From assembly GCA_036005985.1 (NCBI GenBank), contig DASYQB010000262.1:1-35274 (forward strand): a DNA stretch of 35,274 bases, read 5' to 3'. Each line of letters opens with the position of its first letter. Within the stretch, counting starts at the first letter, position 1. The position numbers and the translations under genes were made by a program. Shown here one piece after another: positions 4,263 through 31,351 of the stretch. This stretch comes from Candidatus Methylomirabilota bacterium. Its GTDB lineage: Bacteria > Methylomirabilota > Methylomirabilia > Rokubacteriales > CSP1-6. The notes under the pieces are model-generated. The model was not told where the DNA came from. It saw nothing but the letters and a program-made list of their open reading frames with translations, and did no database searches.

Positions 4263-4278
4263 TGGCACTTTGCTTGCT
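4263..4278 (+). promoter_or_regulatory. Consensus sigma-54 (-24/-12) promoter
   Basis: TGGCAC(4263-4268)-tttgc-TTGCT(4274-4278) is an exact match to TGGCAC-N5-TTGCW. It is intergenic and correctly oriented, with its -12 element 42 nt before ATG 4320. A locally AT-richer leader follows. Confidence 0.6.
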
Positions 4279-4730: not shown

Positions 4731-4954
4731 GCATCATCGAACGATTCGGGGGCAAGGTGCTCGCGTGGATCTCCGCCCTCGTGCTGCTCCTCGCGCTGAT
4801 CGGGCTCCTCGTCGCCACCGGTGAGTCACTGCGACGTCAGGAGCACCGGTCTCCGTTCACGAAAGCGGTCGAGCCCGATCTGCCTCGGCAAAGCCCCGAG
4901 GCTCCCGCTGAGGTCTATCACGCCCCGGGCGTGGCCGCCTGGCCCACACCGTGA
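4721..4954 (+). CDS. Small single-pass membrane protein, hypothetical
   Basis: 77 aa with one hydrophobic helix (VLAWISALVLLLALIGLLVA) and GC3-rich codons. It overlaps the preceding gene by 10 nt. No recognisable family. Confidence 0.4.
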   Translation: MPLGIIERFGGKVLAWISALVLLLALIGLLVATGESLRRQEHRSPFTKAVEPDLPRQSPEAPAEVYHAPGVAAWPTP

Positions 4955-7943: not shown

Positions 7944-8147
7944 ATGAAGGCCCGGGAGCTTCTTGTCGCCTGCTTCGCCCTCTTCGGAGCGTGTCTCCTG
8001 TGGCCCCTCCTTGCCATCGCTAATCGCCCCCTCCTGATTCTCGGGGTGCCCGCCCTCGTCCTCTACCTGCTCGCCGTCTGGGTCGTCATCGTGACCGTGC
8101 TCGTGGTGGCCGCGGCGCGGCGCCGAGGGCTGGAGGACGACGAATGA
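7944..8147 (+). CDS. Small two-TM membrane protein (DUF3311-like accessory subunit of sodium:solute symporters)
   Basis: 67 aa with two hydrophobic helices and an RPLLILGVPALVLY motif. An ATGA overlap couples it to the SSS-domain sensor kinase. Confidence 0.6.
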   Translation: MKARELLVACFALFGACLLWPLLAIANRPLLILGVPALVLYLLAVWVVIVTVLVVAAARRRGLEDDE

Positions 8148-11100
8148 GCTGGCTGAGCCAGCCCACGCTGCTCGCCATCCTCCTCGGCTATCTCATCTTC
8201 CTGTTCCTCGTCGCCTCCGCGGGCGAGACCTTCGCGCGCCGATTGAGCCGCCCGCGAATCCGTACCGTCACCTACGTGCTCGCGGCCTCTGTGTACTGCA
8301 CGGCGTGGACCTTCTACGGTAGCGTGGGCCTCGCCGCCAACCGCGGCCTCGAGTTCCTCACCATCTACCTGGGACCGGCGTGCGTCGCCCTCCTGTGGCC
8401 GCTCCTCCTGCGCAAGCTGGTGCGGGTGTCCAAGGAGCAGCGCATCACGTCCATCTCGGACTTCATCTCCAGCCGCTACGGCAAGTCGGCCCACCTCGGC
8501 ACCCTGGTCGCGGTGCTGGTGGTGGGGGGGATGATCCCGTACATCGCGCTCCAGCTTCGCGCGGTCTCCGCGTCCTTCAGCATGATCATCCAGGAAAGCT
8601 CGGTGTTCCACGTCTTCGATCCCACTCTGCTCGTGGCGGTGACCCTCGCCCTGTTCGGCATCCTGTTCGGGGCCCGTAATCTCGACTTCACCAAGCAGCA
8701 GACCGGCCTCATGACCGCGGTGGCGGTGGAATCCGTGATCAAGCTCGTGGCCTTCCTCGTCATCGGCGTGTACGTCACGTGGGGTCTCTTCAAGGGCCCC
8801 GGGGAGATCTTCGGGCAGATCGTGGGCGATCCGGTGTGGTCCCGTCTCCTCACCCTGGATAAGCCGGAGACCGCCTCCTACGCGCGGTGGGCGGCCATGC
8901 TCCTCATCTCGATGATGGCCGTGATGTTTCTGCCCCGGCAGTTCCACGTGCTCGTCGTGCAGAATCCGCGCGAGCGCGACGTCGACGCGGTGGCGTGGTC
9001 GTTTCCGCTCTATCTGCTCCTCATCAATCTCTTCGTCCTCCCCATTGCCTTCGCGGGTCTCCTCATCTTCCCGGAGTCGGGGGCGCAGGCGGATGGCTTC
9101 ATCCTGCGCCTGCCCCTGCACTTCGATAATCGCCTCGTCTCGGTAGTGGTCTTTCTCGGAGGCTTCTCCGCGGCCACCGCCATGATCGTCGTCGAGTCGC
9201 TCGCCCTCTCCAAGATGATCACCAACGACATCATCCTGCCCATGCTCCTGCGCCGGCGGCAGATGGAGGATGTGTACTGGGTCACCCTCTTCTACACGCG
9301 CGTGGCCATGCTGGGCGTGGTGGCTCTCGGCTTCGCGTGGGCGCGAATGGAGCGGGGGCAGCTTCTCCTCGTCGAGATGGGGCTCTTGTCCTTCGTGGCG
9401 GTGAGCCAGTGCGCGCCGGCTATCCTGCTGGGCCTGTACTGGCGCCGCGGCAACCGGCGGGGCGCCGCGGCGGGGATCTCCGCGGGGTTCGCCCTGTGGT
9501 TCTACACCCTGACCATTCCCGCCCTCGTCAAGGAGGGCGTGGTGTCACCCTCCGTCCTCACCGAGGGCCCGTGGGGCATCGGCTGGCTGAATCCCACCGC
9601 CCTCTTCGGCCTGACCGGTCTCGACGCGACGACCCACGGGATCTTCTGGTCGCTCTTCGTCAATCTCGCCCTCTTCGTGCTCGTGTCCCTCTTCACCGAG
9701 CAGGACGCCGACGACCGCGCCCAAGCCGCGGCCTTCGTGGGCGCGGCAGGGGAGGAACGCCAGCCCGCGGGCGCCCCGGCCATCCTGTCCGCCACCGAGA
9801 TCGAGCGGCTCGTGCATCACTACGTGGGCGACGAGGAGGCGGAAGGTCTCGTGCGCGACCTCTTCCGCGGCAAGTCGCCCGCGGATCTCTCAGTTCCCGA
9901 GCTGCTCGAGCTGCGCATCCGGTTCGAGCGGCTGCTCGCCGCTTCCTTGGGGGCGGCGGCTGCGCGCATGATCGTGGAGGACCGGTTCACCATCTCCAAG
10001 GACGAGGCCGAGCAGCTGGTGACGTCGTTCCAGCATATGCAGCAGTCGCTGCGTCTGACCGAGGAGGAGGTGCGGCGGGGCGAGCGTCTCCTCGCCTCGG
10101 TGGTCCAGAGCGTGGACGACTGCATCTTCACTACCGGCGTCGATGGCCGGCTCGTCACCATGAATCCAGCCGGCCAGCGTCTGCTCGGCCACCGGGAGCG
10201 TCGGCTCGGCCGTCTCGACGTCCAGGATCTCCTCGGCCAGGAGGAGCGCGGACGGGCGGCCAAGGCCATCGTGCCCGCCGTGGAGGCTGGACAGGGGTGG
10301 AGCGGACAGGTGACCGCCCGCACCGCGAAGGGTCATACCTTTCCCGCCTACCTTTCGGTGCGGTGCATCTTCGACGCGGGGGGGCAGATCATCGGCACGG
10401 TGGGCGTGCTGCGCGACCTCACCGAGCAGGTGGAAACGCAGCGGCGGCTCATCCAGCGGGAGAAGCTTGCTTCGCTGGGCGAGATGGCGGCGGGGGTGGC
10501 TCACGAGATCAGGAATCCGCTGGGCGGCATCAAGATGGCGACCAACCTCCTTTCCACCGGGGACCTCGGCGGCGGCTCGCTCTCGCAGGAGATGGCGCGC
10601 TCCATCCTGTCCGGGATCGGCGAGATCGAGCGCATCATCAACAGCCTGCTCGACTTCACTCGGGACACGAAGCTGGAGCGCGCGGAGTACGAGGTCGCGC
10701 GCATCCTCGATCCCGTGGTGGAGGCGGTGGCGGCGGAGGGACGGCTGCGCGGGGTCGAGATCGACTACGGGCGCGCGGATCGGGAGGTGGTGGCATCCGC
10801 GGACGGCCAGCGGCTGCGCCAGGTCTTCGCCAACGTCACGAAGAACGCGCTGGAGGCGATCGATCCGCGCCGTACCGACGGGCGGGTGGTCATCAATCTC
10901 TTCGCCGAGGAGGAGCGGGCGGTGGTGGAGATCATCGACAATGGCGGAGGCATCACCCTCGAGGACCGGGAGAAGATCTTCCTGCCCTTCTTCACCACCA
11001 AGCCCTCGGGCACGGGCCTCGGCATGGCCATCGTGAAGAAGATCGTGGATCTGCACGGGGGCGACATCGGCATCGAGAGCACGCCGGGGCGGGGCACGCG

Positions 11101-11161
11101 GGTGCGTATCTCCCTGCCCGCGGTGGCTCTCACCCAGCCCATCGGAGGAGGCAAATCATGA
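8144..11161 (+). CDS. Sensor histidine kinase with an N-terminal sodium:solute symporter (SSS/SLC5) domain, linker (STAC-like), PAS and HisKA/HATPase domains (CbrA/CrbS-like)
   Basis: 1005 aa. About 500 aa are polytopic and SSS-like. A PAS region follows (VVQSVDDCIFTTGVDGRLVTMNPA). H-box MAAGVAHEIRNPL, N/G boxes DNGGGI and GTGLGMAIV. There is no receiver domain. Confidence 0.9.
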   Translation: MSWLSQPTLLAILLGYLIFLFLVASAGETFARRLSRPRIRTVTYVLAASVYCTAWTFYGSVGLAANRGLEFLTIYLGPACVALLWPLLLRKLVRVSKEQRITSISDFISSRYGKSAHLGTLVAVLVVGGMIPYIALQLRAVSASFSMIIQESSVFHVFDPTLLVAVTLALFGILFGARNLDFTKQQTGLMTAVAVESVIKLVAFLVIGVYVTWGLFKGPGEIFGQIVGDPVWSRLLTLDKPETASYARWAAMLLISMMAVMFLPRQFHVLVVQNPRERDVDAVAWSFPLYLLLINLFVLPIAFAGLLIFPESGAQADGFILRLPLHFDNRLVSVVVFLGGFSAATAMIVVESLALSKMITNDIILPMLLRRRQMEDVYWVTLFYTRVAMLGVVALGFAWARMERGQLLLVEMGLLSFVAVSQCAPAILLGLYWRRGNRRGAAAGISAGFALWFYTLTIPALVKEGVVSPSVLTEGPWGIGWLNPTALFGLTGLDATTHGIFWSLFVNLALFVLVSLFTEQDADDRAQAAAFVGAAGEERQPAGAPAILSATEIERLVHHYVGDEEAEGLVRDLFRGKSPADLSVPELLELRIRFERLLAASLGAAAARMIVEDRFTISKDEAEQLVTSFQHMQQSLRLTEEEVRRGERLLASVVQSVDDCIFTTGVDGRLVTMNPAGQRLLGHRERRLGRLDVQDLLGQEERGRAAKAIVPAVEAGQGWSGQVTARTAKGHTFPAYLSVRCIFDAGGQIIGTVGVLRDLTEQVETQRRLIQREKLASLGEMAAGVAHEIRNPLGGIKMATNLLSTGDLGGGSLSQEMARSILSGIGEIERIINSLLDFTRDTKLERAEYEVARILDPVVEAVAAEGRLRGVEIDYGRADREVVASADGQRLRQVFANVTKNALEAIDPRRTDGRVVINLFAEEERAVVEIIDNGGGITLEDREKIFLPFFTTKPSGTGLGMAIVKKIVDLHGGDIGIESTPGRGTRVRISLPAVALTQPIGGGKS

Positions 11162-12561
11162 AGCAGCGTTTGCTGCTCGTCGACGACGACGAGGTATTTC
11201 TCCGCCCGTTGCACCGGACCCTCGAGCGGGCGGGCTACGAGGTGTTGCCAGTCCAGAGCGGCGAGGAAGCCCTCGACACCCTCAAAGGCGAGGACGTGGA
11301 TCTCGTGCTCACCGACCGGCGACTGCCCGGCATGGACGGAGTGGCCCTCGTGCGCCAGATCAAGATGGATCATCCGGATCTGGCGGTGGTGGTCATGACG
11401 GCCTACGGAACGATCGAATCCGCGGTGGAAGCGATGCGGCTCGGCGCCGAGGATTATCTGGTCAAGCCGTTCGAGGCGGCCGAGATGCTGCTGGTGATTC
11501 GTCGCGCCATCGAGTTCCAGACCCTCAAGTCGGCCAACCGACGCTCCATCCGCCGCAACCAGGAGCGCTTCACCTTCAGCAACGTGGTAGCGCGGAGCGC
11601 GCCCATGCAGGGGGTGTTCGACACGCTCCGCTCCGTGGCCGACCTCGACACGACGGTGCTGATCTACGGCGAGACGGGGGTGGGTAAGGAATTGCTGGCC
11701 CGCTCCGTCCACTTCTCGGGCGCGCGGCGCGACCGTCCGTTCGTGGCCGTCAACTGCGCGGCCATACCCGCGGAGCTCTTCGAATCCGAGCTCTTCGGAT
11801 CACGGAAAGGCGCCTTCACCGGGGCCAGCGAACATCGGCGGGGCCACTTCCAGATGGCCCACGGGGGCACCCTTCTCCTCGATGAGATCGGGGAGATGCC
11901 GCTTCACCTCCAGAGCAAGCTTCTGCGGGCCATCGAGGAAAAGAAGGTCACCTCGGTGGGCGCCGACCGTCCCGTGGACATCGACGTGCGCTTCATCGCC
12001 ACCACCAACAAGGATCTCCAGGGCGAGGTGGAGCGTGGCGCTTTCCGCCGAGATCTCTTCTACCGGCTGTCCGTGATGCCGGTCCGCGTGCCCGCGCTCC
12101 GGGAGCGGTTCGAGGATATTCCCCTCCTCGCGGAGCATTTCCTGCAGGAGCTGGCCCGCCGGCTCAAGCGGGCGGTCAAGAGCATCGCGCCGGAGAGCCT
12201 GCAGGCGCTTCTCCGCTACCCGTGGCCGGGCAATGTGCGAGAGCTCGAGAACGTCATCGAGCGGGCAGTCATCGTGTCCAAGGGCGAGGTGCTGACCGAG
12301 CTCGAGCGGTTCTTGATCGGCCCCGGAGGGGAGCAGGCGCCGGTGGACCTGTCGCTGTCCTTCCGCGACGCCAAGGCGCGCGTGGTAGAAGAATTCGAGC
12401 GGGCATACGTGGCGGGGCTTCTGGAGGCGCACGGCGGCAAGCTGACCGCCGCGGCCAAGCAGGCCGACATGGATCCGAAGAACTTCTCCGACAAGATGGC
12501 GCGTTACGGACTGCGCCGCCAGGCCATCGAGGGAGGCGAGAGCGGCGGGCGCGCTACTTGA
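11158..12561 (+). CDS. NtrC-family sigma-54-dependent response regulator (receiver + AAA+ + Fis-type HTH)
   Basis: Receiver domain (LLLVDDD..., DLVLTDRRLPGMDG, KPF). AAA+ domain with GETGVGKE, the GAFTGA motif and ESELFG. C-terminal HTH. An ATGA overlap joins it to the kinase gene. Confidence 0.9.
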   Translation: MKQRLLLVDDDEVFLRPLHRTLERAGYEVLPVQSGEEALDTLKGEDVDLVLTDRRLPGMDGVALVRQIKMDHPDLAVVVMTAYGTIESAVEAMRLGAEDYLVKPFEAAEMLLVIRRAIEFQTLKSANRRSIRRNQERFTFSNVVARSAPMQGVFDTLRSVADLDTTVLIYGETGVGKELLARSVHFSGARRDRPFVAVNCAAIPAELFESELFGSRKGAFTGASEHRRGHFQMAHGGTLLLDEIGEMPLHLQSKLLRAIEEKKVTSVGADRPVDIDVRFIATTNKDLQGEVERGAFRRDLFYRLSVMPVRVPALRERFEDIPLLAEHFLQELARRLKRAVKSIAPESLQALLRYPWPGNVRELENVIERAVIVSKGEVLTELERFLIGPGGEQAPVDLSLSFRDAKARVVEEFERAYVAGLLEAHGGKLTAAAKQADMDPKNFSDKMARYGLRRQAIEGGESGGRAT

Positions 12562-12644
12562 AGTCTCCCGGAAGTTGGTTTAGAAGATAGCGGGCGCTAT
12601 GCCGCGTCCACCCCCGATTCCCACTCATCACGCGAGGCAGGTCT

Positions 12645-14597
12645 ATGGCGACCAAGGCAGCGGCCGGCGGCACCCAGATCGAGGCTCTCCTGAAAGAGAA
12701 GCGCAAGTTTCCGCCTCCCAAGGAGTTCGTCAAGCGCGCCAACATCAATCGCCCGTCGATCTATGCCCAGGCCGCCAAGAACCCCGTCAGGTTCTGGGAG
12801 GGCTTCGCCAAGGAGCTCGACTGGTTCAAGCCCTGGAGGAAAGGGCTCGAGTGGAAGGCGCCTTACGCCAAGTGGTTCGTGGGGGGCAAGCTCAATGTTT
12901 CCTACAACTGTCTCGACCGGCACATCCACACCGCGCGACGGACGAAGGCCGCCCTCATCTGGGAAGGGGAGCCGGGCGACACGCGGACGCTGACCTACTG
13001 GGATCTCTACCGCGAGGTCAACCGCTTCGCGAGCGCGCTCAAGCGGGCGGGAGTGAAGCGCGGCGATCGCGTGACCATCTACATGCCCATGGTGCCGGAG
13101 ACGGCCATCGCCATGCTCGCGTGCACGCGCATCGGGGCTCCCCACAGCGTCATCTTCGGCGGCTTCGCGCCCGATGCCATTCGCGAGCGGATCCACGACG
13201 CCCAGTCCACCGTGCTCCTCACGGGGGACGGCGGCTGGCGGCGCGGCGGTATCGTGCCCCTCAAGAAAAACGTGGACGAAGCCCTCCAGGACTGCCCCGA
13301 CGTCAAGACGGTGGTGGTGCTCAAGCGCACCGGCCAGCCCATCGACATGCAGGCCGGCCGTGACGTGTGGTGGGACGATTTCGTCAAGGGGGCGGATGCG
13401 CACTGCGCGCCGGAAAAGATGGACGCGGAGGACATGCTCTACCTCCTCTACACCTCGGGCTCGACGGGCAAGCCCAAGGGCATCCAGCACACCACCGGCG
13501 GCTATCTCACTGGCGTCTACGCGACGACCAAGTGGGTGTTTGACCTGAAGGACACCGACGTCTATTGGTGCACGGCCGATATCGGCTGGGTCACCGGTCA
13601 TTCCTATGTCGTCTACGGCCCGCTCGCCAACGGCACCACCACCGTCATGTATGAAGGCACGCCGGACACCCCGGACAAGGACCGCTTCTGGCGCATCATC
13701 GAAAAGCACGGCATCACCATCTGCTACACCGCGCCCACCGCCATCCGCACCTTCATGCGCTGGGGCGACCACTATCCGGGTCGCTGCGACCTCTCGAGCC
13801 TCCGGCTCCTCGGCTCGGTCGGCGAGCCCATCAATCCCGAGGCGTGGGTCTGGTACTGGAAGGTCATCGGGGGCGGCCGCTGTCCGGTGGTGGACACGTG
13901 GTGGCAGACAGAAACCGGACATATCCTCATCACGCCCCTGCCCGGGATCACCGTTCTCAAGCCGGGCTCGGCGACCAAGCCCTTCCCCGGTATCGCGGCC
14001 GACGTGCTCAACGACAAGGGTGAGCCCGCCAAGGCCGGCTACCTCGTGATCAGGAAGCCCTGGCCGGGCATGCTTCGCGGTATCTACAGGGACCCGCAGC
14101 GTTTCCAGGCACAGTACTGGAGCCGCTACCCGGGGATCTACTTCACGGGGGACGGCGCCAAGATCGACGACGACGGCTACTTCTGGCTGCTCGGTCGCGT
14201 GGACGACGTCATGAACATCTCGGGCCACCGCGTCTCCACCATGGAAGTCGAGTCGGCGCTGGTCGACCACCCGCTGGTCGCCGAGGCCGCGGTGATCGGG
14301 CGCCCCCACGAGATCAAGGGACAGGCCATCGCCGCCTTCGTGACCATCAGGGACGGCAATCAGGGCAGCAAGGAACTGATGGAGGAGCTCAAAGGGCACG
14401 TGACCAAGAAGATCGGCGCCCTGGCCCGCCCCGACGACCTCATCTTCGCCTCGGATCTGCCCAAGACCCGAAGTGGCAAGATCATGCGCCGTCTCCTGCG
14501 TGACATCGCAGAAGGCAAGGCTCTCGGAGACACGACCACGCTGGCCGATCCGGCGGTGGTGGCCATGCTCAAGGACAAGTACGGCGAGGAGGAATAG
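12645..14597 (+). CDS. acs: Acetyl-CoA synthetase (AMP-forming)
   Basis: 650 aa. N-terminus typical of Acs ([14 protein letters not shown]...[16 protein letters not shown]), AMP-binding motif [11 protein letters not shown], and C-terminal SGKIMRR. Confidence 0.95.
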
Positions 14598-21704: not shown

Positions 21705-23377
21705 TGCCGCCGGTCCGTCACCGGCTCCGCATGGTCTCGGAGGACACCTTGGGCGATCTCTCCACACGGTCCGCGATCCGGCGCGACTTCCTCAAGCTCG
21801 CGGCGGGAGCCGCGGCCACGCTGGCCAGCCCACCGGGACTGGCGCTCGCCGGGCCTCGGCCGAAGCGGGGCGGCGTGCTCAAGGTCATCGGGCTCGAGCC
21901 TCCGACCTTCGACGCGCACGGCACGATCTCGTATCAGACCCTGCTCATGTCGTCGTTCGTGAGACGGACGCTCTTCAAGTACGTCAACGGCGCCAGGTAC
22001 AGCCCGTCCGATTTCACCCTCGTGCCCGACCTGGCGCTCAAGGCCGACGTCTCGAAGGACGGCCGCGTCTATACGATCGCCCTCCGCCCCGGGGTGCGCT
22101 GGGAGTCGCGGGCTCCCGTAAAGGGACGCGAGCTCGTGGCCGCCGACGTCAAGTACAGCTTCGACCGGGCCATCAAGAAATCACTCACGGCCCACCTGCT
22201 CGGGCGCATCGAGGGTATCGAGACGCCGGACAAGTACACGGTCCGCGTCACCCTCGCCGATGCCTACGCGCCCTTTTTGCACAACCTGGCCGAGCCGTGG
22301 AACGGCGTCGTGCCGCCCGAGGTCGAGGACAAGATGGGCGACCTCAGGACGGCCGAGTCGTTGATCGGATGCGGGCCCTTCGTGTTCGACCGATACGAGC
22401 CCGGGGCCAAGGCGGTGTTCGTCCGCAACCCGGGGTATTACGCCAGAGGCCTCCCGTATCTCGACAAGGTGGAGTGGCTCTTCGTGAAGGACCGGTCGAC
22501 CCAGCTCTCGCTCTTTCGTGCGGGGCAGGTCGATCTGCCGTTCCACGACGCCCGCATTCCCCGCACCGACGTGGCTTCCTTCAAGAAGTCCAATCCCACC
22601 TATCCGCTGGTCTTCTGGGACTGGCTGGGTGTTCGCACCCTCGCGTTCCGCACCGACAAGGCGCCCTTTCACGACGCGCGCGTGCGGCAGGCCTTCTCCC
22701 TCGCGGTGGACCGCAAGAAGTGGCTCAACCAGTTCCTCGAGGGGCAGGGATGGGAAGATCCCGGGCCCGTGCCCGCGCCCATGCGGGAATGGAAGCTGCC
22801 TACCGCCCCGCCGAGTGAGGCGGCGAGATGGCTCCAGCACAATCCGGCCCTCGCCAAGAAGATGCTCGCCGAGGCGGGCTTTCCCAACGGGCTGAAGGTC
22901 AAGTGCACGAACTGGCCCGGCTATGGCCCCGAATACGTCGAGGAGCTCGAGCTGCTTGCCTCTAGCCTCAAGCAGATCGGCGTGGAGCTCCAGATCATCA
23001 ACGAGGACTACGGCAACTACATCCGCGGCTCCTTTCTCGGCAAGTTCGAGGAGGCGAGCTGGGGACCCTCCTCCCTGTTCACGGAGGTCGACGGCTATCT
23101 CTACAGCTTCTTCCGGACGGGGCAGCCCAATAACCGCAGCCACGTGGCCGACACCGAGCTCGACGTGATGCTGGACGCCCAGCGCCGCTACCCCTCGCGA
23201 TCGTCCCGCAAGAAGATCATCGACGACATCCAGCGCCACACCGCCGATCGCGTGTACTACGTGTACACGCCGTACCCGAAGAACGTGTCCGCGTGGACTC
23301 CCTGGGTGAAGAACTACGGCTGCAAGAACTCGTTCGATCGGGGAGCTCAGCTCCAGGTGGTGTGGCTCGACCGATAG
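21704..23377 (+). CDS. ABC transporter substrate-binding protein, family 5 (peptide/nickel/opine type), with a Tat signal
   Basis: 557 aa. Twin-arginine signal SAIRRDFLKLAAGAAATLA..ALA and an SBP_bac_5-like body. ATG 21704 overlaps the cobC stop (TAATG); ATG 21731 is an alternative. No permease or ATPase genes lie adjacent. Confidence 0.8.
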   Translation: MPPVRHRLRMVSEDTLGDLSTRSAIRRDFLKLAAGAAATLASPPGLALAGPRPKRGGVLKVIGLEPPTFDAHGTISYQTLLMSSFVRRTLFKYVNGARYSPSDFTLVPDLALKADVSKDGRVYTIALRPGVRWESRAPVKGRELVAADVKYSFDRAIKKSLTAHLLGRIEGIETPDKYTVRVTLADAYAPFLHNLAEPWNGVVPPEVEDKMGDLRTAESLIGCGPFVFDRYEPGAKAVFVRNPGYYARGLPYLDKVEWLFVKDRSTQLSLFRAGQVDLPFHDARIPRTDVASFKKSNPTYPLVFWDWLGVRTLAFRTDKAPFHDARVRQAFSLAVDRKKWLNQFLEGQGWEDPGPVPAPMREWKLPTAPPSEAARWLQHNPALAKKMLAEAGFPNGLKVKCTNWPGYGPEYVEELELLASSLKQIGVELQIINEDYGNYIRGSFLGKFEEASWGPSSLFTEVDGYLYSFFRTGQPNNRSHVADTELDVMLDAQRRYPSRSSRKKIIDDIQRHTADRVYYVYTPYPKNVSAWTPWVKNYGCKNSFDRGAQLQVVWLDR

Positions 23378-23609
23378 CCGGTGGTTTTCGGCGCCGAAAT
23401 GCTCCGTGACGCCTCGCGCGATCTCCTGGATCCCCGGCGGAGCGGCAGCGAAAAGTGAGGTCGATCTGACGGTCTCCGTCGTTCGGCTGTCGCGAGGAGA
23501 ACACTCGTACTCGGGTGGCGTGGGTTCCTCGAGAACGGCGCCCACCAGGGCGCTCTTCAAAAACAGTCAGTTGTGGGAAGGATCACCCATGCTGGTTCCC
23601 ATCGAGCCG

Positions 23610-23625
23610 TGGCACCCTCCTTGCT
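23610..23625 (+). promoter_or_regulatory. Consensus sigma-54 (-24/-12) promoter
   Basis: TGGCAC(23610-23615)-cctcc-TTGCT(23621-23625) is an exact TGGCAC-N5-TTGCW match. It is intergenic, with its -12 element 24 nt upstream of ATG 23649. AGGAG lies at 23634-23638. Confidence 0.6.
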
Positions 23626-23648
23626 TAGGCGCTAGGAGCCATCCATCC

Positions 23649-24122
23649 ATGAACACGATCTTTGAGTTGTCGAGAAGGGCCGTCCGGAGTGGGGACGGCT
23701 TCACCGTAGCGGAACTTCTTGCCGCGATATTCGTCATCGCCGTCGGTCTCGTCGCAGTGGGCGCGGGCTTCGCCACCGCCATCCAGGGCGTTGAGACAGG
23801 CCGCCAGCAGACGACGGCGACCTTCCTTGCCGAGCAGCGCATGGAGCAGATCCGCGCGACTGCCCTCGGCGACCCGCTGGTCGCCTGCATGGGCTTCACC
23901 AATATCACGACCGCGTGCTTCCCCGCCCAGGCGTACGGGGCCATTGAAAGTGCGCCGGGCTACCGGTCGACCGTCACCATCACCGACTACACCGTCGCCG
24001 GGAACGTCGTGCGCAAGCGGGTGGACGTGGAGGTCTTCTACCAGCCGATCGTCGCGTGGGGCGTGCTCGTCACGGCCGAGCGCAGCGTCCGTCTGTCCAC
24101 GCTGGTAGCGAACCACACATGA
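23649..24122 (+). CDS. Prepilin-type N-terminal cleavage/methylation domain protein (PilV/GspI-like minor pilin)
   Basis: Class III signal ...RSGDG|FTVAELLAAIFVIAVGLVAVG, with Gly-1, Phe+1, Glu+5 and a hydrophobic helix. 157 aa. Confidence 0.75.
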   Translation: MNTIFELSRRAVRSGDGFTVAELLAAIFVIAVGLVAVGAGFATAIQGVETGRQQTTATFLAEQRMEQIRATALGDPLVACMGFTNITTACFPAQAYGAIESAPGYRSTVTITDYTVAGNVVRKRVDVEVFYQPIVAWGVLVTAERSVRLSTLVANHT

Positions 24123-24769
24123 GCAACGACCAGCCGGCCATCCGTGATCAGCGGGGCTTCTCCATGAGCGAGCTCCTCGTTGTCTGCGCCGTTCTGGGCA
24201 TCGTCATGGCGGGGGTGCTCGGTCTCCTCATGGTGGGCCAGCAAAGCGCCACCACGACCTCGAACAAGGTCGACGCGCAGGCGAACGCCCGCATCGCCAT
24301 CGAGCGCATGATCGAGGAGATCCGCGAGGCGGGTTATCTGCCGGCGGGGCCAGCGTGTCCCGGGGCACCCGTCACTCCGTGTCCTCCCTTCAGCTACGCC
24401 TTCTCCGCCATCACCAACGAGAGCGCCACGGGCCTGACCATTCAGAACGACTGGAATGCCAACAACAGCATACAGACCACCTCGGTGGTCGATCCCATCT
24501 CCGGCGGGAATCGCGGCGAGCAGGTTATCTACTCTTTCGCGGGTGGACAGCTGTCCCGGCGGGAGATGGGTGTCGACGCCGCTCCCGTGGTTCTGGCATC
24601 GGGTATCACCAGTCTTGCCTTCACCTATCTCGACCAGGCCAATGCGGTCACGGGCACCGCTGCCGACATCCGGACGGTGACGATTACCATGACCACCCAG
24701 CAGAGCACCGGCCAGCCGCAGGTGACTATGGTGCACCGGGTGCGCCTCCGCAACCGGCCGACCTCGTGA
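24119..24769 (+). CDS. Prepilin-type N-terminal domain protein (PilW/GspJ-like minor pilin)
   Basis: ...RDQRG|FSMSELLVVCAVLGIVMAGVLGLL with Glu+5. 216 aa. An ATGA overlap joins it to the upstream gene. Confidence 0.75.
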   Translation: MSNDQPAIRDQRGFSMSELLVVCAVLGIVMAGVLGLLMVGQQSATTTSNKVDAQANARIAIERMIEEIREAGYLPAGPACPGAPVTPCPPFSYAFSAITNESATGLTIQNDWNANNSIQTTSVVDPISGGNRGEQVIYSFAGGQLSRREMGVDAAPVVLASGITSLAFTYLDQANAVTGTAADIRTVTITMTTQQSTGQPQVTMVHRVRLRNRPTS

Positions 24770-24780
24770 GGAACGTGACC

Positions 24781-26280
24781 ATGACGCGTCTCAGAGCCAT
24801 GATGTGCGACCAGCGCGGGGTGGCCCTGCCGCTTGCCCTGATCTCGCTTCTCATTCTGACCTCGCTCGTGTTGACCGTGCTGAACCTGGGAGCGGTCGAG
24901 CCGCAGATCTCGAGGAATCTCTCGGACACCGCGCGCGCCCGGCACCTCGCCGAAGCGGGCATCGAGTGGGCGTTCGACTGCATCGCCGACCAGGACCTGG
25001 ACTCGTTCCTCGCCGGCCCCGACAGTATGCAGAACACGGCCGACGATCAACTGGCCACCAGCGTGGCCGGCCAGAACATCGGCGCCCAGATGAGCAACAA
25101 CGTCTGCGTCAATTCGCCCGCGCCCGGCGCGCTCCCCGGCCTCAGCAACGCCATGGGCACGTTCGCGGTGACGATCCGCAACGACTCCATCGCCGCGGGC
25201 GGCGGCTACGCGGGCGACCAGATTCTCACCGGGTCGCCTGTCGACGCCGGGGGCAAGTTCACGGATACGAACGGTATCGTCATCCTCACCGCTACCGGCA
25301 CCTACGGCACGGCCACTCGGCAGATCACCGCCGTGATCAGCCGCAATACCCTGGCCGTCAATGCCGCGGTCACTCTTCCCGGCTTCCAGGCCGATACCTA
25401 CATGCAGACGGTCGGTAACCAGACCATAGACGGCCGGGACTGGATGCGTGCGGACGATAATTCCTTGAGCGCTCCTAACGGCTCCACGATGCGACTGGGC
25501 ATCGCGACCCAGGCGGGAACGCAGGCGAACCTCGGTATCACCTACGAGCAGAACGTCGAGAACGCCTTCGACACGGTGGCCAAACAGGACACCGTGCAGG
25601 GAAAGAGCCAGGTGAACGGTACCGCGACTTCGGGATACAACACCATCGCGGCCGACAACACCATGACCCCGACCGCCGTGCAGAACTTCCTCAACAAGCT
25701 GGCCGCCAATCCGGCGACCAGGGTCATTCAGAGCAGCCTGGCGTGTCCGCTCAGGCTCACGGGTACCGTGGCCAGCCCGAACACGCCGGCGCTCTCCAGC
25801 ACGGGCAACCAGTCGGGCTGCGCGGGCAACCCGCCCATTGGCACCAATCTCTACCTGGGGACACCCACCGATCCCAAGCTCGTGTACTTTCGGGGTGAGC
25901 TCGACCCGTCGTCGAACTTCACCGGCCTCAACATCACGGGCACCGTCAAGGGGGCGGGCATCCTCGTGGTGGAGGACGGCGACCTTTCCATCACTACCTC
26001 GGGCGCCGGGCTCAACATCTCCGGCCGCGACGTGGACTTCTACTGGGACGGTATCGTGATCGTGACCGGACGCTACGTGGGCACGGGGTTCCGGAGCGGC
26101 AGCAATGCCGAGATTCGCGGCGCCTTTGTGGCCAACGAGACGATCTCCAACGAGGCGAGCGGCTACTTCGAGTTCGTCACCCAGGCCAACACCCTGGCTC
26201 TTCGCAACAGCTCCCAGAACATCAACATGGCGCTGCGGGCCGCCTACAACCAGCGGATCATCAGCTGGCGCGAAAACTGA
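24781..26280 (+). CDS. Large PilX/GspK-like pseudopilin-type protein (hydrophobic N-terminus without Glu+5)
   Basis: N-terminus DQRGVALPLALISLLILTSLVLTVL, as in GspK/PilX N-terminal domains. 499 aa, rich in Thr/Asn/Gly and predicted to be exported. C-terminal GILVVEDGDL...WDGIVIVTG...IRGAF segment. GAGGA lies upstream. Confidence 0.65.
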   Translation: MTRLRAMMCDQRGVALPLALISLLILTSLVLTVLNLGAVEPQISRNLSDTARARHLAEAGIEWAFDCIADQDLDSFLAGPDSMQNTADDQLATSVAGQNIGAQMSNNVCVNSPAPGALPGLSNAMGTFAVTIRNDSIAAGGGYAGDQILTGSPVDAGGKFTDTNGIVILTATGTYGTATRQITAVISRNTLAVNAAVTLPGFQADTYMQTVGNQTIDGRDWMRADDNSLSAPNGSTMRLGIATQAGTQANLGITYEQNVENAFDTVAKQDTVQGKSQVNGTATSGYNTIAADNTMTPTAVQNFLNKLAANPATRVIQSSLACPLRLTGTVASPNTPALSSTGNQSGCAGNPPIGTNLYLGTPTDPKLVYFRGELDPSSNFTGLNITGTVKGAGILVVEDGDLSITTSGAGLNISGRDVDFYWDGIVIVTGRYVGTGFRSGSNAEIRGAFVANETISNEASGYFEFVTQANTLALRNSSQNINMALRAAYNQRIISWREN

Positions 26281-27024
26281 GTGCGGGACTACCCGCTGCT
26301 CTTCGGTTTGGCGGCGCTCGGCCTCGTCGTCGGCTGCCAGCAGGCACCCCAACGACCGGCCGACGCGCCGCATGTTTCACGGGCCGCGGTGGCGCGAGGG
26401 ACGGCCGACCAGCTCATGGAGAGCGGCGAGTATGAGAAGGCGGCCGGCAGGTATCAGGAAGCGGTCGGCCTCGTGCCCAATGACATGGCGCTGCGCTTCG
26501 CCCTCGGCACCGCCTACTCGCACCTCGGACGACAGGCCGAGGCCGCCGAGCAGTTTCAGTGGGCGGTGAAGCGCGGCGACCCCGCCGCGGACTATTACCG
26601 GGGGGCGCGCCAGTGGCTCCTTCGCGCCGGCCTTCTTTCCGACGAGGCGGTGGCCAGCGCGTCACCGGAGACTGCCTCCGCCAGCCGGTGGTCGGCCAAA
26701 GGCAAGGTGGGCGGCCCCCTGGAGTGGCCGGGGGTGAACTCTCGCGCGTGGCTGATCAAGGTGCGCGTGACCCTCAGCGGTGACGATCAGGCCACGAGAT
26801 CGGTGAAGGTGTCGCGCCCCTTCCGGCTGGGCGAGCGATACGAGTTTCGCGATCTGACGCCGGGAAAGTATCGGCTGGTTGCCAGGGCGGAGAATGGCGC
26901 TCCCGCCGTCGAGCTATGGAATCAAGAGGTGATGATCGAGGCGGGAAAGGCCATCCAGCTCGCCCTGAGCGCCGCGAACAGCAAGGTCAGCCCAGCCCAG
27001 TTCCCCGGCGCTGCGCCGAGGTAG
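26281..27024 (+). CDS. Lipoprotein with TPR repeats and a C-terminal beta-sandwich (carboxypeptidase-regulatory-like) domain
   Basis: Lipobox LGLVVGC. TPR-like region YEKAAGRYQEAVGLVPND..LGTAYSHLGRQAEAAEQFQWAV. C-terminal RDLTPGKYRLVARAENG. The GTG start abuts the preceding TGA. Confidence 0.7.
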   Translation: MRDYPLLFGLAALGLVVGCQQAPQRPADAPHVSRAAVARGTADQLMESGEYEKAAGRYQEAVGLVPNDMALRFALGTAYSHLGRQAEAAEQFQWAVKRGDPAADYYRGARQWLLRAGLLSDEAVASASPETASASRWSAKGKVGGPLEWPGVNSRAWLIKVRVTLSGDDQATRSVKVSRPFRLGERYEFRDLTPGKYRLVARAENGAPAVELWNQEVMIEAGKAIQLALSAANSKVSPAQFPGAAPR

Positions 27025-27039
27025 CTCCCGCCGCCTCGG

Positions 27040-27435
27040 CTATTTCCTGAAGGTGAAGGCGCCCGCCCCGAGCAGGGCTTGGGCAATGGTGGCGCCGAGA
27101 AGGAACAGGACGTACTCGTACCCGTTCTTCCCGCCGAAGATGAAGAAGCCCTGGGACAGGTGCACGAACCACAGGGCCCCCGCGATGATCGGTATGTTCG
27201 CCAGCGCCGCCCATCTCACCATGATGCCGAGGATGAGCAGGAGGCCGCCCAGTCCGTGGGCGAGGATCAGATACCACACGCCGATCTCGGGCAGGGGAAT
27301 GTGGATGGCGCGCTGATAGTCGATGGCCTTGGCCGGCCCCATCACGAAGAGGGCAAGATAGGCATGCGCCATGTAGATCACGCCGAGAAAGATTCGCAGC
27401 ACCAGCGCGCCGTAGGCCTCGAGGCCTCGCCCCAC
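27040..27435 (-). CDS. DoxX-family membrane protein
   Basis: 131 aa with four hydrophobic segments. LRIFLGVIYMAHA start and a typical DoxX size and layout. Confidence 0.8.
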   Translation of the reverse strand: MGRGLEAYGALVLRIFLGVIYMAHAYLALFVMGPAKAIDYQRAIHIPLPEIGVWYLILAHGLGGLLLILGIMVRWAALANIPIIAGALWFVHLSQGFFIFGGKNGYEYVLFLLGATIAQALLGAGAFTFRK

Positions 27436-27463
27436 CGTCAGCCCTCCTTGTCGAGACGGGTCC

Positions 27464-28135
27464 TCACGGCTTCCGGAAGAAGATCTCGCCGATGAAGGCC
27501 TCGGCCCGCGATTTCGTGTCGTCGGAGTCGATGCCGAGGGACAACGCCTCCACCTTCTCGTTGGGGTCCTCGCCGTAGATCTTCTTGTAGTCTTCGCAGA
27601 CGTTGCGGGATTCTGTGAGCCACTTGCCCAAGTCCGCCTCGCCCGAGCGCATCACCACGTAGGTGACGAGCCCCGTCTTCTGGCTCTTGAACGTGAGGCC
27701 GGCGGGCGCCGTGGTGTCCCAGATGTAGCCGATCACCCGCGAGCGCACGGCGGCCGGGAAGCGGGGGAAGGTGACGTAGACCTGGGCCGCCTCGTCGTCC
27801 GTCTCCTTCTTGCGAGCGTCGGCGCCCTTGGGCAGGGCCATCACCTTCCAGCTCCACTGGAGGATCGGATAGTCCTTGCAGTCGATCTTGATTTCCTTGT
27901 TGATGGTGGAGCTGTCACCCTCGCTGAGCAGGCGAAGGACATGCGCCGAGCCTTCCCCCACCACCTCGAAATCGTACTTGGGACTGCCCCAGCTCTGCGC
28001 GCGCCAGCCGGGAGGGACGCCCTTGGTGCCCACGGGGACCTTCGACCAGTCCTCCACGAGAAACCGGGGACCTTGCGCGGACACGAGGGAGGCGCTGGCC
28101 GCGAGCAGGAGCAGCGTGAGCCAGCCTCGTCGCAT
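27464..28135 (-). CDS. Secreted DUF3047-family protein
   Basis: Signal peptide MRRGWLTLLLLAASASLVSA. The body has a YPILQWSWKV...DDEAAQVYVTF pattern that I associate with DUF3047. ATG 28135 is preceded by GAGGAGG. Confidence 0.7.
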   Translation of the reverse strand: MRRGWLTLLLLAASASLVSAQGPRFLVEDWSKVPVGTKGVPPGWRAQSWGSPKYDFEVVGEGSAHVLRLLSEGDSSTINKEIKIDCKDYPILQWSWKVMALPKGADARKKETDDEAAQVYVTFPRFPAAVRSRVIGYIWDTTAPAGLTFKSQKTGLVTYVVMRSGEADLGKWLTESRNVCEDYKKIYGEDPNEKVEALSLGIDSDDTKSRAEAFIGEIFFRKP

Positions 28136-28755: not shown

Positions 28756-29214
28756 ATGCGACATGGATTCGGCTTACTCGCTGTGCGCGCCGCCGCGGTG
28801 GCCGGGCTGGCCGCGATCGTGGTCCTGACCCAGGCCTGCTCGTTTTCCGCCAGCTCGAAAGGGTCGTCCAACAGCTCCGAGTCGTCGTCCGACTCCTCGG
28901 CGAGCAGCTCGCGCTCGAGCTCACCGGAGAGCGCGGAGTCGCAATACAAGAGCGACGTGCGCGAGTACACCGCCGCCTACATGAAGACCGGCGGACAGTT
29001 CGACGCATTCCGACGCGGCATCGGCGACATTGCCAGGAAGCACAACATCACGAACTGGGAAGACCATCCCGTGACCTACGAGGGCATAGGTCAGGGGCTG
29101 GGGGAGGGGGGAGCGACCGAGCTCCAGCTCAAGGCGTATATGGACGGTCTGGCCGGGCAGGATGCGGGGAAGCGCGCGGCGATGCAGAAGGGCTACGACG
29201 CCAAGAAGAAGTAG
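28756..29214 (+). CDS. Lipoprotein with a Ser-rich linker, unknown function
   Basis: Lipobox VVLTQAC. Linker SSKGSSNSSESSSDSSASSSRSSSPES. A ~95-aa helical-looking C-terminal domain. No family recognised. Confidence 0.6.
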   Translation: MRHGFGLLAVRAAAVAGLAAIVVLTQACSFSASSKGSSNSSESSSDSSASSSRSSSPESAESQYKSDVREYTAAYMKTGGQFDAFRRGIGDIARKHNITNWEDHPVTYEGIGQGLGEGGATELQLKAYMDGLAGQDAGKRAAMQKGYDAKKK

Positions 29215-29215
29215 C

Positions 29216-31111
29216 ATGCGAAAGCTCGGGCGGCTGCTCTGGCTTGGCGTGATGCTCGTGGCGGGCCTCCGGCATCCGGCCGCCGCGGAGACCGCGGCGG
29301 GCGTCGAATATCTCTACGTAGAGTCCAATGAGGGCGGCTCGAGCGGCGGCCATGTCGCCCTTCGCGTGGGCGATGACGTCTTTCACTTCGAGCATCGCTC
29401 TCCCGGCGTCCTCGTCCTGGGCCGGGACGACTTCGACCACTTCCGGTACCGGTACAGCGTCCTCGAAAATCGCACCATACACGTGAGCCGCCTCGCGGTG
29501 AGCGGGGAGACCGCTGGTCTCCTCGCCGATCGCTTCAGGCGCCGGCACTTCCTCCAGCGCCGCCACCTCGACGCGATCGAAAGCCTGCGCGCGGACCGGA
29601 CGACCCTCGAGGAGATGCTGTCGGACGGCATCGTCCTCGAGGCCGCGGGCTATTTTCTCTCCGACCATGGGCTCGCACCGAAGCCGGCGCCCCTCACCGA
29701 GGACCCGGACCTCGCGGATCTTCGCTCACGGGTCGCCCTCGCTCACGGGGCCGACTTCCTCGAGCGCAGGACGAGGAGCCTCCGGGCCGCCCTCGCCGCG
29801 CTCGACCCGCTCGTGATGGACCTGCCCGAGCTTCCCACCGCCGAGATGCCGCCTGCACCCGCCTATAGTTTTCCTCAGCGCTATCGGGATCTGATGGGAG
29901 CGCTCGCGTCGCTCGAGGTCCTGCGCGACGCTCGCCCGCTGGTATCGGGATCCCTGCGCCAGCGCGCCTCCGACGACCTCGTGTTCACCGAGGCGGATTC
30001 TCTCGCTGCCCGCCAGCTCTCCGATGCCCTCGCGGCGGCGCTCGTCCGCCTTGTCGCATCCGACCGCCCGGACGGAGGCGTGGCGCTCATGGTCGGCATG
30101 GCCAGGCTGGCCGCCCTCGGAGCTAGCCGGCGCCAGGAGCGCTGGGTCGTCGTCGATCTCTTTCCTTCCGAGATCACGCCCGTTCCCCGGCGTGGGCTGG
30201 CGGTGGGGCCCGAGCAGGCCGCGGTCCTCCTCGAGGACACCAGCGAGGAGCTTGCCCGCACCCGGGAGCGGCTCCTGCGTCGCTCCGAGGACGGCAGTTT
30301 CCCCGAGGCCGAATTCGCGAGCTTCGAGGCCGCGGCCAACCGCTCGGACGAGCTCCGCCTCGCTCTCGCGGCGCAGCGTGAGCGTCGCGTCCTCAAGATC
30401 CCGCTCGTCCCGTCTCGGCCCGCCCGTCTGGGCGTTGCGGGAATGGACCGTCAGGCCCTGCTCCACGGCCTCGAAGCCGTCCACGAGCGGGAAGAGGCCT
30501 TCGCGGTCGGGTTCAAGCGGCGATGGGGATACAACCTGGTCACCCGCAACTGCGTCTCGGAGGTCTTCAGCGAGATCGACGCGGCCTTCGAGGGAGGCGC
30601 CCAGGAATCGGAGCGGCGCATGGGCGGACGTCTTCGCATGGACGGCTCGCTCAACTTCATTCCCGCCGTCTCCGCGGCGGCCGTCGAGACCTCGTATCCG
30701 GTGACGGAGCGGCTCCAGCTCACGTCGTACCGTCGGGCCCGGGTCGACGAGATGTACCGCCAGGAGAACCCCGTCACCGTCTTCCTGCGGGAATCGAACA
30801 CGCTGACCTCGGCCATATACCGGCGCAACGCGGACGACTCCATCTTCGTGTTCTTCACGGACGACGCGGTGGTGGCCCGGCCGTTCTTCGGCGCGGTCAA
30901 CCTCGTGGTGGGAATCGCCGCGAGCGCCGTGGGGCTGGTCGCCCTGCCCGCGGACGGAGGCGCCACGCTGTGGGCGGGTCTGAAGGGAGCGCTGTTCAGC
31001 CTGCCCGAGCTCTTCTTCCAGAACATCCGCAAGGGCTCCTTCGAGCACGTCAGGCGGGAAGGCTTTCCGGAGCCCGTGACCCGCCGCGCGGAGGCGCCCG
31101 GCGGCGGTTGA
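29216..31111 (+). CDS. Large exported/membrane-anchored protein of unknown function (possible distant DUF4105/Lnb-periplasmic-domain-like motifs)
   Basis: 631 aa. Signal peptide ending in AAAE. GGHVALRVGDDVFHFEH near the N-terminus and YNLVTRNCVSEVF about 420 aa later. C-terminal hydrophobic helix FFGAVNLVVGIAASAVGLVAL. The start lies 1 nt after the lipoprotein stop. Confidence 0.6.
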   Translation: MRKLGRLLWLGVMLVAGLRHPAAAETAAGVEYLYVESNEGGSSGGHVALRVGDDVFHFEHRSPGVLVLGRDDFDHFRYRYSVLENRTIHVSRLAVSGETAGLLADRFRRRHFLQRRHLDAIESLRADRTTLEEMLSDGIVLEAAGYFLSDHGLAPKPAPLTEDPDLADLRSRVALAHGADFLERRTRSLRAALAALDPLVMDLPELPTAEMPPAPAYSFPQRYRDLMGALASLEVLRDARPLVSGSLRQRASDDLVFTEADSLAARQLSDALAAALVRLVASDRPDGGVALMVGMARLAALGASRRQERWVVVDLFPSEITPVPRRGLAVGPEQAAVLLEDTSEELARTRERLLRRSEDGSFPEAEFASFEAAANRSDELRLALAAQRERRVLKIPLVPSRPARLGVAGMDRQALLHGLEAVHEREEAFAVGFKRRWGYNLVTRNCVSEVFSEIDAAFEGGAQESERRMGGRLRMDGSLNFIPAVSAAAVETSYPVTERLQLTSYRRARVDEMYRQENPVTVFLRESNTLTSAIYRRNADDSIFVFFTDDAVVARPFFGAVNLVVGIAASAVGLVALPADGGATLWAGLKGALFSLPELFFQNIRKGSFEHVRREGFPEPVTRRAEAPGGG

Positions 31112-31149
31112 CCAGCCGTACCGCCTTCTGTTACCGTCACCGCGCCAAT

Positions 31150-31318
31150 GGTGTCGGGCGGCCCGCCGAGGAGCGGGCCCCAGGGAAGGCGGTGCAAATC
31201 CGCCGCGACCGCGTCACTGTGATCGGGGACGAAACCCACAGAGAGCCACTGGCCCGTCAGGGCCGGGAAGGCGTGGGGAGTAGGACGATCCGAAAGTCAG
31301 GAGACCTGCCCGCACACC
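31150..31318 (+). promoter_or_regulatory. Cobalamin (B12) riboswitch
   Basis: Conserved core read directly from the sequence: GGGAAGGCGGTGCAAATCCGCCGCGACCGCGTCACTGT...GAAA...GCCACTGG...GGCCGGGAAGGC...AAGTCAGGAGACCTGCC (B12 box). P1 pairing of GGTGTCGGGC (31150-) with GCCCGCACACC (-31318). GGAGGA at 31341-31346 and the cobU GTG at 31352 follow. Confidence 0.9.
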
Positions 31319-31351
31319 GTCACTCCAACCGGTCTTCGCTGGAGGACCCGG

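Follow-up and report, generated by a model that had tools for sequence, protein, structure and literature searches.

What does a compact set of pilin-like genes do in a stretch of DNA that otherwise carries housekeeping functions only? The question is raised by a locus in 35,274 bases from Rokubacteria (Methylomirabilota), abundant uncultured soil and groundwater bacteria. The whole stretch is hereafter called the window, and its other genes were scanned with Pfam. On the + strand, four tightly coupled genes (23649-27024) lie behind a sigma-54-type motif at 23610-23625. As a sequence-only reading of this DNA had stated, these scans detected no pilus or type II secretion system (T2SS) machinery genes within the 35-kb window, and none were seen in the +/-10 kb flanks of syntenic relatives. 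We consider it likely that the four genes form a type IVa pilus minor-pilin priming or tip module with an accessory periplasmic lipoprotein, expressed as one sigma-54-dependent unit. The features concerned are given below, where a slash marks the predicted cleavage position in each protein.

23466-23505, + strand: conserved upstream element, candidate upstream activating sequence (UAS); the window reads CTGACGGTCTCCGTCGTTCGGCTGTCGCG...
23610-23625, + strand: sigma-54-type (-24/-12) promoter, TGGCAC-N5-TTGCT, in the window TGGCACCCTCCTTGCT
23649-24122, + strand: ORF1, 157 aa, PilV-like minor prepilin, ...RSGDG/FTVAELLAAIFVIAVG (G/FTVAE)
24119-24769, + strand: ORF2, 216 aa, PilW/PpdB-like minor prepilin, ...DQRG/FSMSELLVVCAVLG (G/FSMSE)
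24781-26280, + strand: ORF3, 499 aa, bulky PilX/GspK-like terminal pilin, ...DQRG/VALPLALISLLILTSL (G/VALPL)
26281-27024, + strand: ORF4, 247 aa, lipoprotein with TPR and beta-sandwich, lipobox LVVG/C

The junctions are those described in the sequence-only reading: ORF1 and ORF2 overlap in an ATGA, ORF2 and ORF3 are separated by 11 nt, and the GTG start codon of ORF4 abuts the TGA of ORF3. The reading frames of all four genes are intact and exhibit the GC3 bias typical of real genes (window G+C 67.6%). The four genes are under purifying selection, with pairwise dN/dS values of 0.17-0.27 across all of them against two close relatives (0.22-0.27 for ORF1).

Homologous modules were found embedded in complete pil clusters at the related loci L042, L023, L055, L056, and L062. 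The 5′ part of these clusters reads (pilC)-pilS-pilR-pilA-[PMT_2/TPR membrane protein]-pilD. The slot after pilD is occupied by a GspH-like pilin, a PilV-like protein, a PilW-like protein, a 400-480-aa PilX_N protein, and a ~240-aa TPR lipoprotein, and the 3′ part continues with pilM-pilN-pilO-(pilP)-pilQ (AMIN secretin)-aroC/aroB-TPR (207 aa)-efp-accBC. The V, W, X, and TPR proteins of L055 are 43, 40, 36, and 33% identical to the window ORF1-4, respectively, over essentially the full length, and the TPR protein of L062 contains TPR plus CarboxypepD_reg, as in ORF4. Because of this homology and the gene order shared with modules in complete pil clusters, we assign the operon to the type IVa pilus system with good confidence. 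Linkage to the type IVa machinery (pilD, pilMNOPQ, pilA, and pilC) was seen for L023, L042, L055, L056, and L062, but not for the window or its syntenic relatives.

These embedded modules change how the locus should be viewed. It is no isolated oddity, as complete pil clusters of the same phylum hold homologous modules in the interval from pilD to pilM. The idea that the proteins are assembled by a machine encoded elsewhere is also supported. The sequence-only reading took pilin, ATPase, and secretin genes to be the usual neighbours of PilV/W/X sets; this is true of the T2SS but not of type IVa pili, in which minor-pilin operons are often separate loci, as is fimU-pilVWXY1E in P. aeruginosa. 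The description of the set as self-contained is doubtful, as the embedded modules carry a fourth pilin gene upstream, encoding a GspH/FimU-like adaptor, which is absent from the three pilin-like genes of the window.

Further features of the pil clusters were observed. In a variant Rokubacteria-like cluster (contig carrying P0318, JGI 3300043331), the pilD-pilM slot carries, on the opposite strand, genes for GspH, a pilin, 233-aa and 149-aa proteins, PilY1 (969 aa), and a 231-aa TPR protein. The shared slot suggests that the big X protein may stand in for PilX plus PilY1. A PMT_2 glycosyltransferase/TPR membrane protein of ~610-630 aa is encoded between pilA and pilD (L042 4438-6288, L055 3608-5437, and L062 3264-5153), with a homologue also near the module in L022, and it may be a pilin glycosylation enzyme.

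The four-gene order recurs in related genomes. About twenty species-representative metagenome-assembled genomes (MAGs) carry the module in the same slot, between cobS-cobC(-SBP5) and DoxX-DUF3047 in a cobalamin neighbourhood. The slot is retained in contigs whose ORF3 is 86%, 75%, and 47% identical to that of the window, and the phylum-wide synteny of the module extends down to 40-47% identity. The relatives of ORF3 number more than 500, the named ones being Candidatus Rokubacteria/Methylomirabilota MAGs, and an ORF3 profile searched against 1.84 billion representatives yielded 398 relatives with E<=1e-10, of which 101 reach E<=1e-30. By neighbour-joining, the window copy is placed with L001-L004; the syntenic copies are for the most part united in a single clade, with the embedded copies in other clades.

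The composition of the module varies. Some paralogous modules begin with an additional pilin gene (L017, L021, L022, L026, L046, and L048), and others end in a PilA-like gene in place of ORF4 (L033 and L034). Reduced versions exist as well: ORF1 and ORF3 only, with no room for ORF2 or ORF4, in the syntenic slot of L018 (7909-9875) and L043 (9513-11503), and an orphan ORF3 homologue in L016 (5203-6675). In addition, the ORF3-type gene occurs in tandem, in two to three copies, in L004 (10001-13086), L023 (6967-10090), L025 (5285-9538), L042 (8553-11443), and L046 (7008-11275), suggesting that the tip subunit has diversified.

Most probably, the copy in the window is a paralogous one, additional to the set of the pil cluster, and both would rely on a common machine and a common GspH/FimU-like adaptor. 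Possible, though doubtful, is a relocation from the pil cluster, in which case the organism's type IVa pilus would have these core minor pilins only and no extra, alternative tip. In L061, the pilD-pilM slot holds GspH-like and PilV-like genes only, and a GspH-like gene is precisely what the detached module is missing; L061 also belongs to the same assembly series as the detached-module assemblies L058 and L060, and most MAGs gave only one module in the scan, all of which would fit a relocation. However, no link leads from L061 to a genome with a detached module, and the patterns used in the scan were fitted to close relatives and could have missed embedded copies. Moreover, at least six MAGs contain two ORF3-type loci on different contigs.

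The expression of the operon was considered next to its gene content. The motif before ORF1 is an exact TGGCAC-N5-TTGCT, with 24 nt separating the last base of TTGCT from the ATG, both as previously read. In a four-locus alignment, TGGCA[CT]-N5-TTGCT is invariant and the flanks have diverged. The strict motif was found ~40 nt 5′ of the ORF1 homologue in 19 of the 42 fetched loci, and a GG-N10-GC variant occupies the same place in ~10 further loci. Only 24 strict motifs were counted on both strands of the related loci (1.69 Mb), and 19 of these lie ~40 nt before ORF1 homologues, far more than chance would give. The site has GG at -24, GC at -12, and the exact spacing, and it lies upstream of a gene and is conserved among orthologues. 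No sigma-70-like promoter was predicted in 23200-27600, the 270-nt upstream region gave no Rfam match, and the gene preceding the operon is followed by a weak terminator-like hairpin. Assuming a start ~12 nt after the GC, the window leader would be ~13 nt, its shortness being due to a 12-nt deletion relative to the other loci.

A second conserved element lies further upstream. In most relatives it reads GCTGACG-N3-TTC-N-TGTAGGT-N5-CTGTCAC, and in the window it takes a diverged form (CTGACG...GTCG...CTGTCGCG, 23466-23494). It could be aligned in 17 upstream regions, and the gene preceding it differs between loci. In 11 syntenic loci the element is located 132-146 nt before the -24 element, and the CTGAC of the window lies 144 nt before it. 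We regard the element as a candidate site for an enhancer-binding protein, and a short conserved CA-N4-6-TT between this element and the promoter could perhaps be an IHF-type site. The conservation of the promoter and the upstream element at fixed positions argues for sigma-54 control of the operon, which is well supported by the alignments, and the predicted layout is that of a classic enhancer-dependent sigma-54 promoter. The sigma-54 promoter postulated from the window alone is supported by the same motif at the same position in related loci. The pilA promoters in Rokubacterial pil clusters are also of the sigma-54 type, lie just downstream of pilR, and have GCTGAC...TGTCA(C) boxes upstream; the embedded module of L062 has its own motif, TGGCGCCCTCCTTGCT, one base off the window motif.

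Elsewhere in the window, the strict motif occurs at a single site, 4263 (TGGCACTTTGCTTGCT, 4263-4278), 42 nt before a 136-aa ORF (4320-4730, MTRVLMIDENRALTES...). This ORF has the look of a degenerate stand-alone receiver domain, has no Pfam match, and is followed by a small membrane ORF (4721-4954). The window also contains a sigma-54 activator, which the sequence-only reading had missed, among the following genes.

8144-11161: SSF-PAS histidine kinase, directly before the activator
11161-12558: NtrC/AtoC-family sigma-54 activator, hidden within a longer spurious ORF (9337-12561) and easily missed
12645-14597: acetyl-CoA synthetase (acs), after the activator

The presence of this activator indicates that the genome uses sigma-54. 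The kinase, activator, and acs genes (8144-14597) resemble a CbrA/CrbS-like acetate-sensing unit. As a regulator of the pilin operon, this NtrC-family protein is conceivable at best: it pairs with the SSF-PAS kinase by acs, and the pair is unlinked to the module in other loci.

For ORF1 and ORF2, the class III signals that had been read from the sequence (G/FTVAE and G/FSMSE) are present, as is the Glu5-less third subunit, in which G/VALPL is followed by a hydrophobic helix. All three proteins have Gly at -1 and a hydrophobic stretch, and Glu at +5 is absent only in ORF3, where the residue is Leu. Searches with hidden Markov models returned N_methyl/IV_pilin_GFxxxE for ORF1 and ORF2. ORF1 falls just under the cut-offs of both N_methyl (16.1 bits) and TIGR02532. 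Its best named match is PilV (TIGR02523, E=1.9e-6, 28.4 bits versus a cut-off of 52.2), and it also matches GspI (TIGR01707, E=1.4e-3, 19.1 bits versus a cut-off of 44.35), the PilV/GspI match being confined to residues 17-71. ORF2 passes both N_methyl (30.9 bits versus 21.2) and TIGR02532 (23.9 bits versus 16.3). The best named match of ORF2 is a weak one to PpdB (NF007848, 23.3 bits versus a cut-off of 120), and its L005 homologue gave a weak PF27121 PpdB match. The designations PilV-like, PilW-like, and PilX/GspK-like for ORF1-3 are therefore to be taken as provisional, being based on the N-terminus and gene position.

For ORF3, the N-terminus and the body behave differently in such searches. 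The GspK model NF037980 matches weakly and only with its first 63 positions, at N-terminal residues 11-73 of ORF3 (E=1.9e-4, 21.1 bits versus a cut-off of 130), and no Pfam match was obtained at E<=1. PF14341 PilX_N is present in many ORF3 homologues at 45-49% identity and is matched by the ORF3-type proteins of L055 and L062 at E ~2e-3. Residues G13, L16, and P17 are invariant, and Glu5 is absent. The body is rich in Ala, Gly, and Thr (~11% each) and Asn (8.9%); one relative gave a faint DUF7305 match, and no Pfam model exists for the body of the family. The AlphaFold2 model built from a 37-sequence alignment (pLDDT 82, pTM 0.70) contains a pilin part, composed of a helix at 11-68 and a four-stranded sheet at ~100-187, followed by a large beta-rich body (195-476, ~300 aa) that includes two short helical segments, and by a C-terminal helix. 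The top Foldseek match to the PDB was ComZ of Thermus thermophilus (6qvi), which was weak (E 0.019-0.029, probability 0.2-0.28, TM 0.18-0.21); the runner-up had an E value of 1.7. The fold match to ComZ is suggestive, not significant.

The extreme C-terminus of ORF3, [WYF]-R-E-[NLI] (window 26266-26277), is retained in almost the whole family and is predicted to be disordered. This tail was considered as a ligand of the ORF4 TPR and rejected: no covariation was seen, as some loci have the tail but no ORF4, and L042 and L055 have ORF4 but a different tail.

The match to ComZ raises an explanation that we judge improbable, namely that the module is a competence-type tip, with ORF3 as a ComZ-like DNA receptor and the trio priming short DNA-uptake pili. 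ComZ, the best fold match of ORF3, is a DNA-binding protein whose partner is a minor pilin encoded next to it, and cyanobacteria keep separate minor-pilin sets for competence and motility. However, the match is weak and unaccompanied by sequence similarity, the DNA-binding lysines of ComZ could not be mapped onto ORF3, and no comEA, comEC, or dprA was seen near any locus.

Less credible still is a T2SS pseudopilus tip of the GspI/J/K kind, with the T2SS encoded elsewhere. The weak matches of ORF1 to GspI and of ORF3 to GspK, and the match of the Rokubacterial major pilins to the T2SSG domain, would fit this explanation. Conversely, the Gsp scores are far under the cut-offs, no T2SS genes (gspC-M, including those for GspC, GspL, and GspM) were seen in the window or any related locus, and the homologous modules lie among the type IVa hallmarks pilM, pilN, pilO, the AMIN-domain secretin, and pilS/pilR. 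It is very improbable that a pilus module was duplicated and the operon is what remains of it, decaying or silent and without current function: reduced versions do exist (the orphan ORF3 of L016 and the ORF1+ORF3 pairs of L018 and L043), but the four frames are intact, dN/dS is low, the promoter and UAS are conserved, and synteny is kept across deep divergence.

For ORF4, the TPR and beta-sandwich lipoprotein assignment made from the sequence agrees with Pfam and with the predicted structure. TPR_11 and TPR_14 scored above their cut-offs and CarboxypepD_reg weakly, and the best NCBIfam match was the pilotin model TIGR02521 (PilW/PilF), at 29.5 bits versus a cut-off of 154. In the AlphaFold2 model (pLDDT 80.6), a disordered tether leads to 2.5 TPRs made up of five helices (residues 34-115), and a linker connects these to a beta-sandwich of seven strands (141-226). 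Foldseek returned generic TPR/beta-sandwich matches only, with no pilotin- or PilP-specific signal. The family is small, with only 93 matches. In nearly every module, whether detached or embedded, the gene after big X encodes an ORF4 homologue; in the embedded modules this gene lies just before pilM.

The gene anatomy, the conservation of the promoter, the homology to the embedded modules, and the purifying selection described above are the observations from which a type IVa priming or tip module is proposed. We infer the biochemical steps that follow, as well as which activator and ligand are involved, what ORF4 does, and that the machinery coexists with the module in this genome. An NtrC-family activator, most likely PilR or a relative, would bind the element ~144 nt upstream and open the sigma-54 promoter at 23610. 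A prepilin peptidase would cut ORF1 (PilV-like) and ORF2 (PilW-like) at G/F; pilD genes are present in the pil clusters of the phylum. ORF3 would act as a terminal subunit only, because of its PilX/GspK-type N-terminus without Glu5. The N-terminal helices of ORF1-3 would bring the three together in the inner membrane, where they would prime assembly by a PilB/C/M-Q machine from another locus before taking their place at the pilus tip. There, the beta-rich body of ORF3 (~300 residues) may take the plug/adhesin role of the Proteobacterial PilY1, as proposed for ComZ and cyanobacterial PilX, and ORF4 may help to fold, hold, or dock the bulky tip complex.

Several points weigh against this interpretation. 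The window proteins score under the curated cut-offs for the PilV, PilW, GspK, and PilX models, the syntenic loci L018 and L043 are without ORF2 and ORF4, and a function for ORF4 is suggested by gene linkage alone. The match of ORF3 to ComZ is not significant by itself (E 0.02, TM 0.2), and the ORF3-family profile matched no PDB chain, giving noise only against all PDB sequences. In addition, neither a comparison of GenBank accessions and locus tags between ORF3-family and PilM clusters nor the NCBI-derived PilM contigs gave an assembly common to both. The interpretation further presupposes pilus machinery and a prepilin peptidase in the window's own genome, as well as transcription of the operon by sigma-54, which is predicted from its promoter sequence.

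A bolder proposal, put forward tentatively and in our view rather unlikely, is that the ORF4 family is a previously unrecognised dedicated component of the pilus tip, a periplasmic chaperone or docking factor, and that the cob/DoxX module is a second tip under a separate signal. If this is true, an ORF4-type factor would let a bulky PilX- or PilY1-type tip assemble and pass the secretin, and the Rokubacterial pilus would be switched to a functionally distinct tip by the cob/DoxX-linked module, which has a sigma-54 enhancer to itself.

The surroundings of the module in the window, as assigned by Pfam, are as follows.

Immediately 5′ of the cluster: cobS, cobC, and an SBP_bac_5 protein
3′ of the cluster: DoxX and DUF3047 (opposite strand), an S4 protein, and two unknowns
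Other window genes: aroK, metH-like, amidase, RRM protein, and DUF169-UroD
Other window genes, continued: acs (listed above), dksA, GDPD, plsC, aroQ, ECF sigma factor, and carboxyltransferase

A cobalamin riboswitch (RF00174, 100.9 bits) was found at 31139-31328, upstream of cobU-cobT-btuF-fecCD. A secreted-looking 649-aa protein without a Pfam match is encoded at 29162-31111, preceded by a 152-aa protein, also without a match, and the pair is kept in the syntenic neighbourhood (L001 15350-17672).

Overall, the arrangement is fairly ordinary for a poorly studied phylum and is not a new kind of machine. Separate minor-pilin operons, multiple sets, Glu5-less terminal subunits, bulky PilX/ComZ tips, and sigma-54/PilR control all have precedents; the oversized third subunit, which the sequence-only reading had singled out as special, is of a type already described in ComZ and cyanobacterial PilX. 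The searchable literature contained nothing relevant on pili or surface appendages in Rokubacteria/Methylomirabilota. As far as we found, the ORF3 family, the TPR/beta-sandwich lipoprotein as its constant companion, this particular enhancer element, and pili in this phylum are seemingly undescribed; of the parts of the module, the conserved lipoprotein is understood least. The analysis identifies the type IVa pilus gene cluster of the phylum and its minor-pilin module. It suggests that, after Deinococcus-Thermus and Cyanobacteria, a third phylum has a bulky PilX-type subunit in the place of the Proteobacterial pair of PilX and PilY1, which fits the idea that a plug/adhesin role at the tip can be built into the terminal pilin. 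The conserved lipoprotein partner and the conserved sigma-54 enhancer are both testable.

Among known systems, the closest in gene order are the type IVa core minor-pilin operons (fimU-pilVWXY1E of P. aeruginosa and the minor-pilin/PilY1 clusters of M. xanthus), which share with the window the succession of PilV-, PilW-, and Glu5-less PilX-like genes in one operon. These operons, too, are often located away from the machinery, can exist as several paralogous sets per genome, and have a proposed priming and tip role. Unlike them, the window set is without a FimU/GspH-like adaptor, PilE, and PilY1, its third subunit has 499 aa compared to about 150-200 aa, and its last gene encodes a TPR/beta-sandwich lipoprotein.

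The GspI-GspJ-GspK tip is similar in being a pseudopilin trimer whose third member, GspK, has a QRGVAL-type N-terminus, no Glu5, and an extra domain. It differs in that the relatives of the window set lie in a type IVa pilus context, and in that the extra domain of ORF3 is beta-rich, whereas the GspK insert is alpha-helical. ORF4, in turn, resembles the PilF/PilW/Tgl pilotins as a ~250-aa TPR lipoprotein encoded with pilus genes, but these have six TPRs, whereas ORF4 combines ~2.5 TPRs with a beta-sandwich and falls short of TIGR02521. The all-TPR ~207-aa protein downstream of pilQ in Rokubacterial pil clusters could be a pilotin.

With respect to regulation, the -24/-12 promoter and the upstream TGTC(AC) boxes are like those of PilS-PilR/sigma-54 pilin control (pilA of P. 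aeruginosa and M. xanthus, and X. oryzae), and a sigma-54/PilR-dependent fimT-pilVWXYE operon has been reported in Xanthomonas oryzae (RpoN2-PilRX). Unlike these systems, the window operon has no pilS/pilR nearby and has its own layout, GCTGACG...TGTAGGT...CTGTCAC, ~144 nt upstream.

ComZ has a GspK-like pilin domain with a beta-solenoid inserted ahead of the last pilin strand, and is argued to be located at the tip and to bind PilA2 and DNA (PMC6561018). All cyanobacterial PilX proteins are reported to carry such a domain, which has been proposed to replace the PilY1 plug (2026 preprint, bioRxiv 10.64898/2026.02.12.705559). Unlike ComZ, to which it has no detectable sequence similarity and a weak fold match (TM 0.2), ORF3 may be without a regular solenoid, as the long strands of its model would indicate. 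Like ComZ (PDB 6QVI) and the cyanobacterial beta-solenoid PilX, it is encoded next to PilV/W-like minor pilins, without PilY1 in the organism or cluster, and according to its model would combine a GspK-like N-domain with a large beta-rich domain of the kind proposed to cap the tip.

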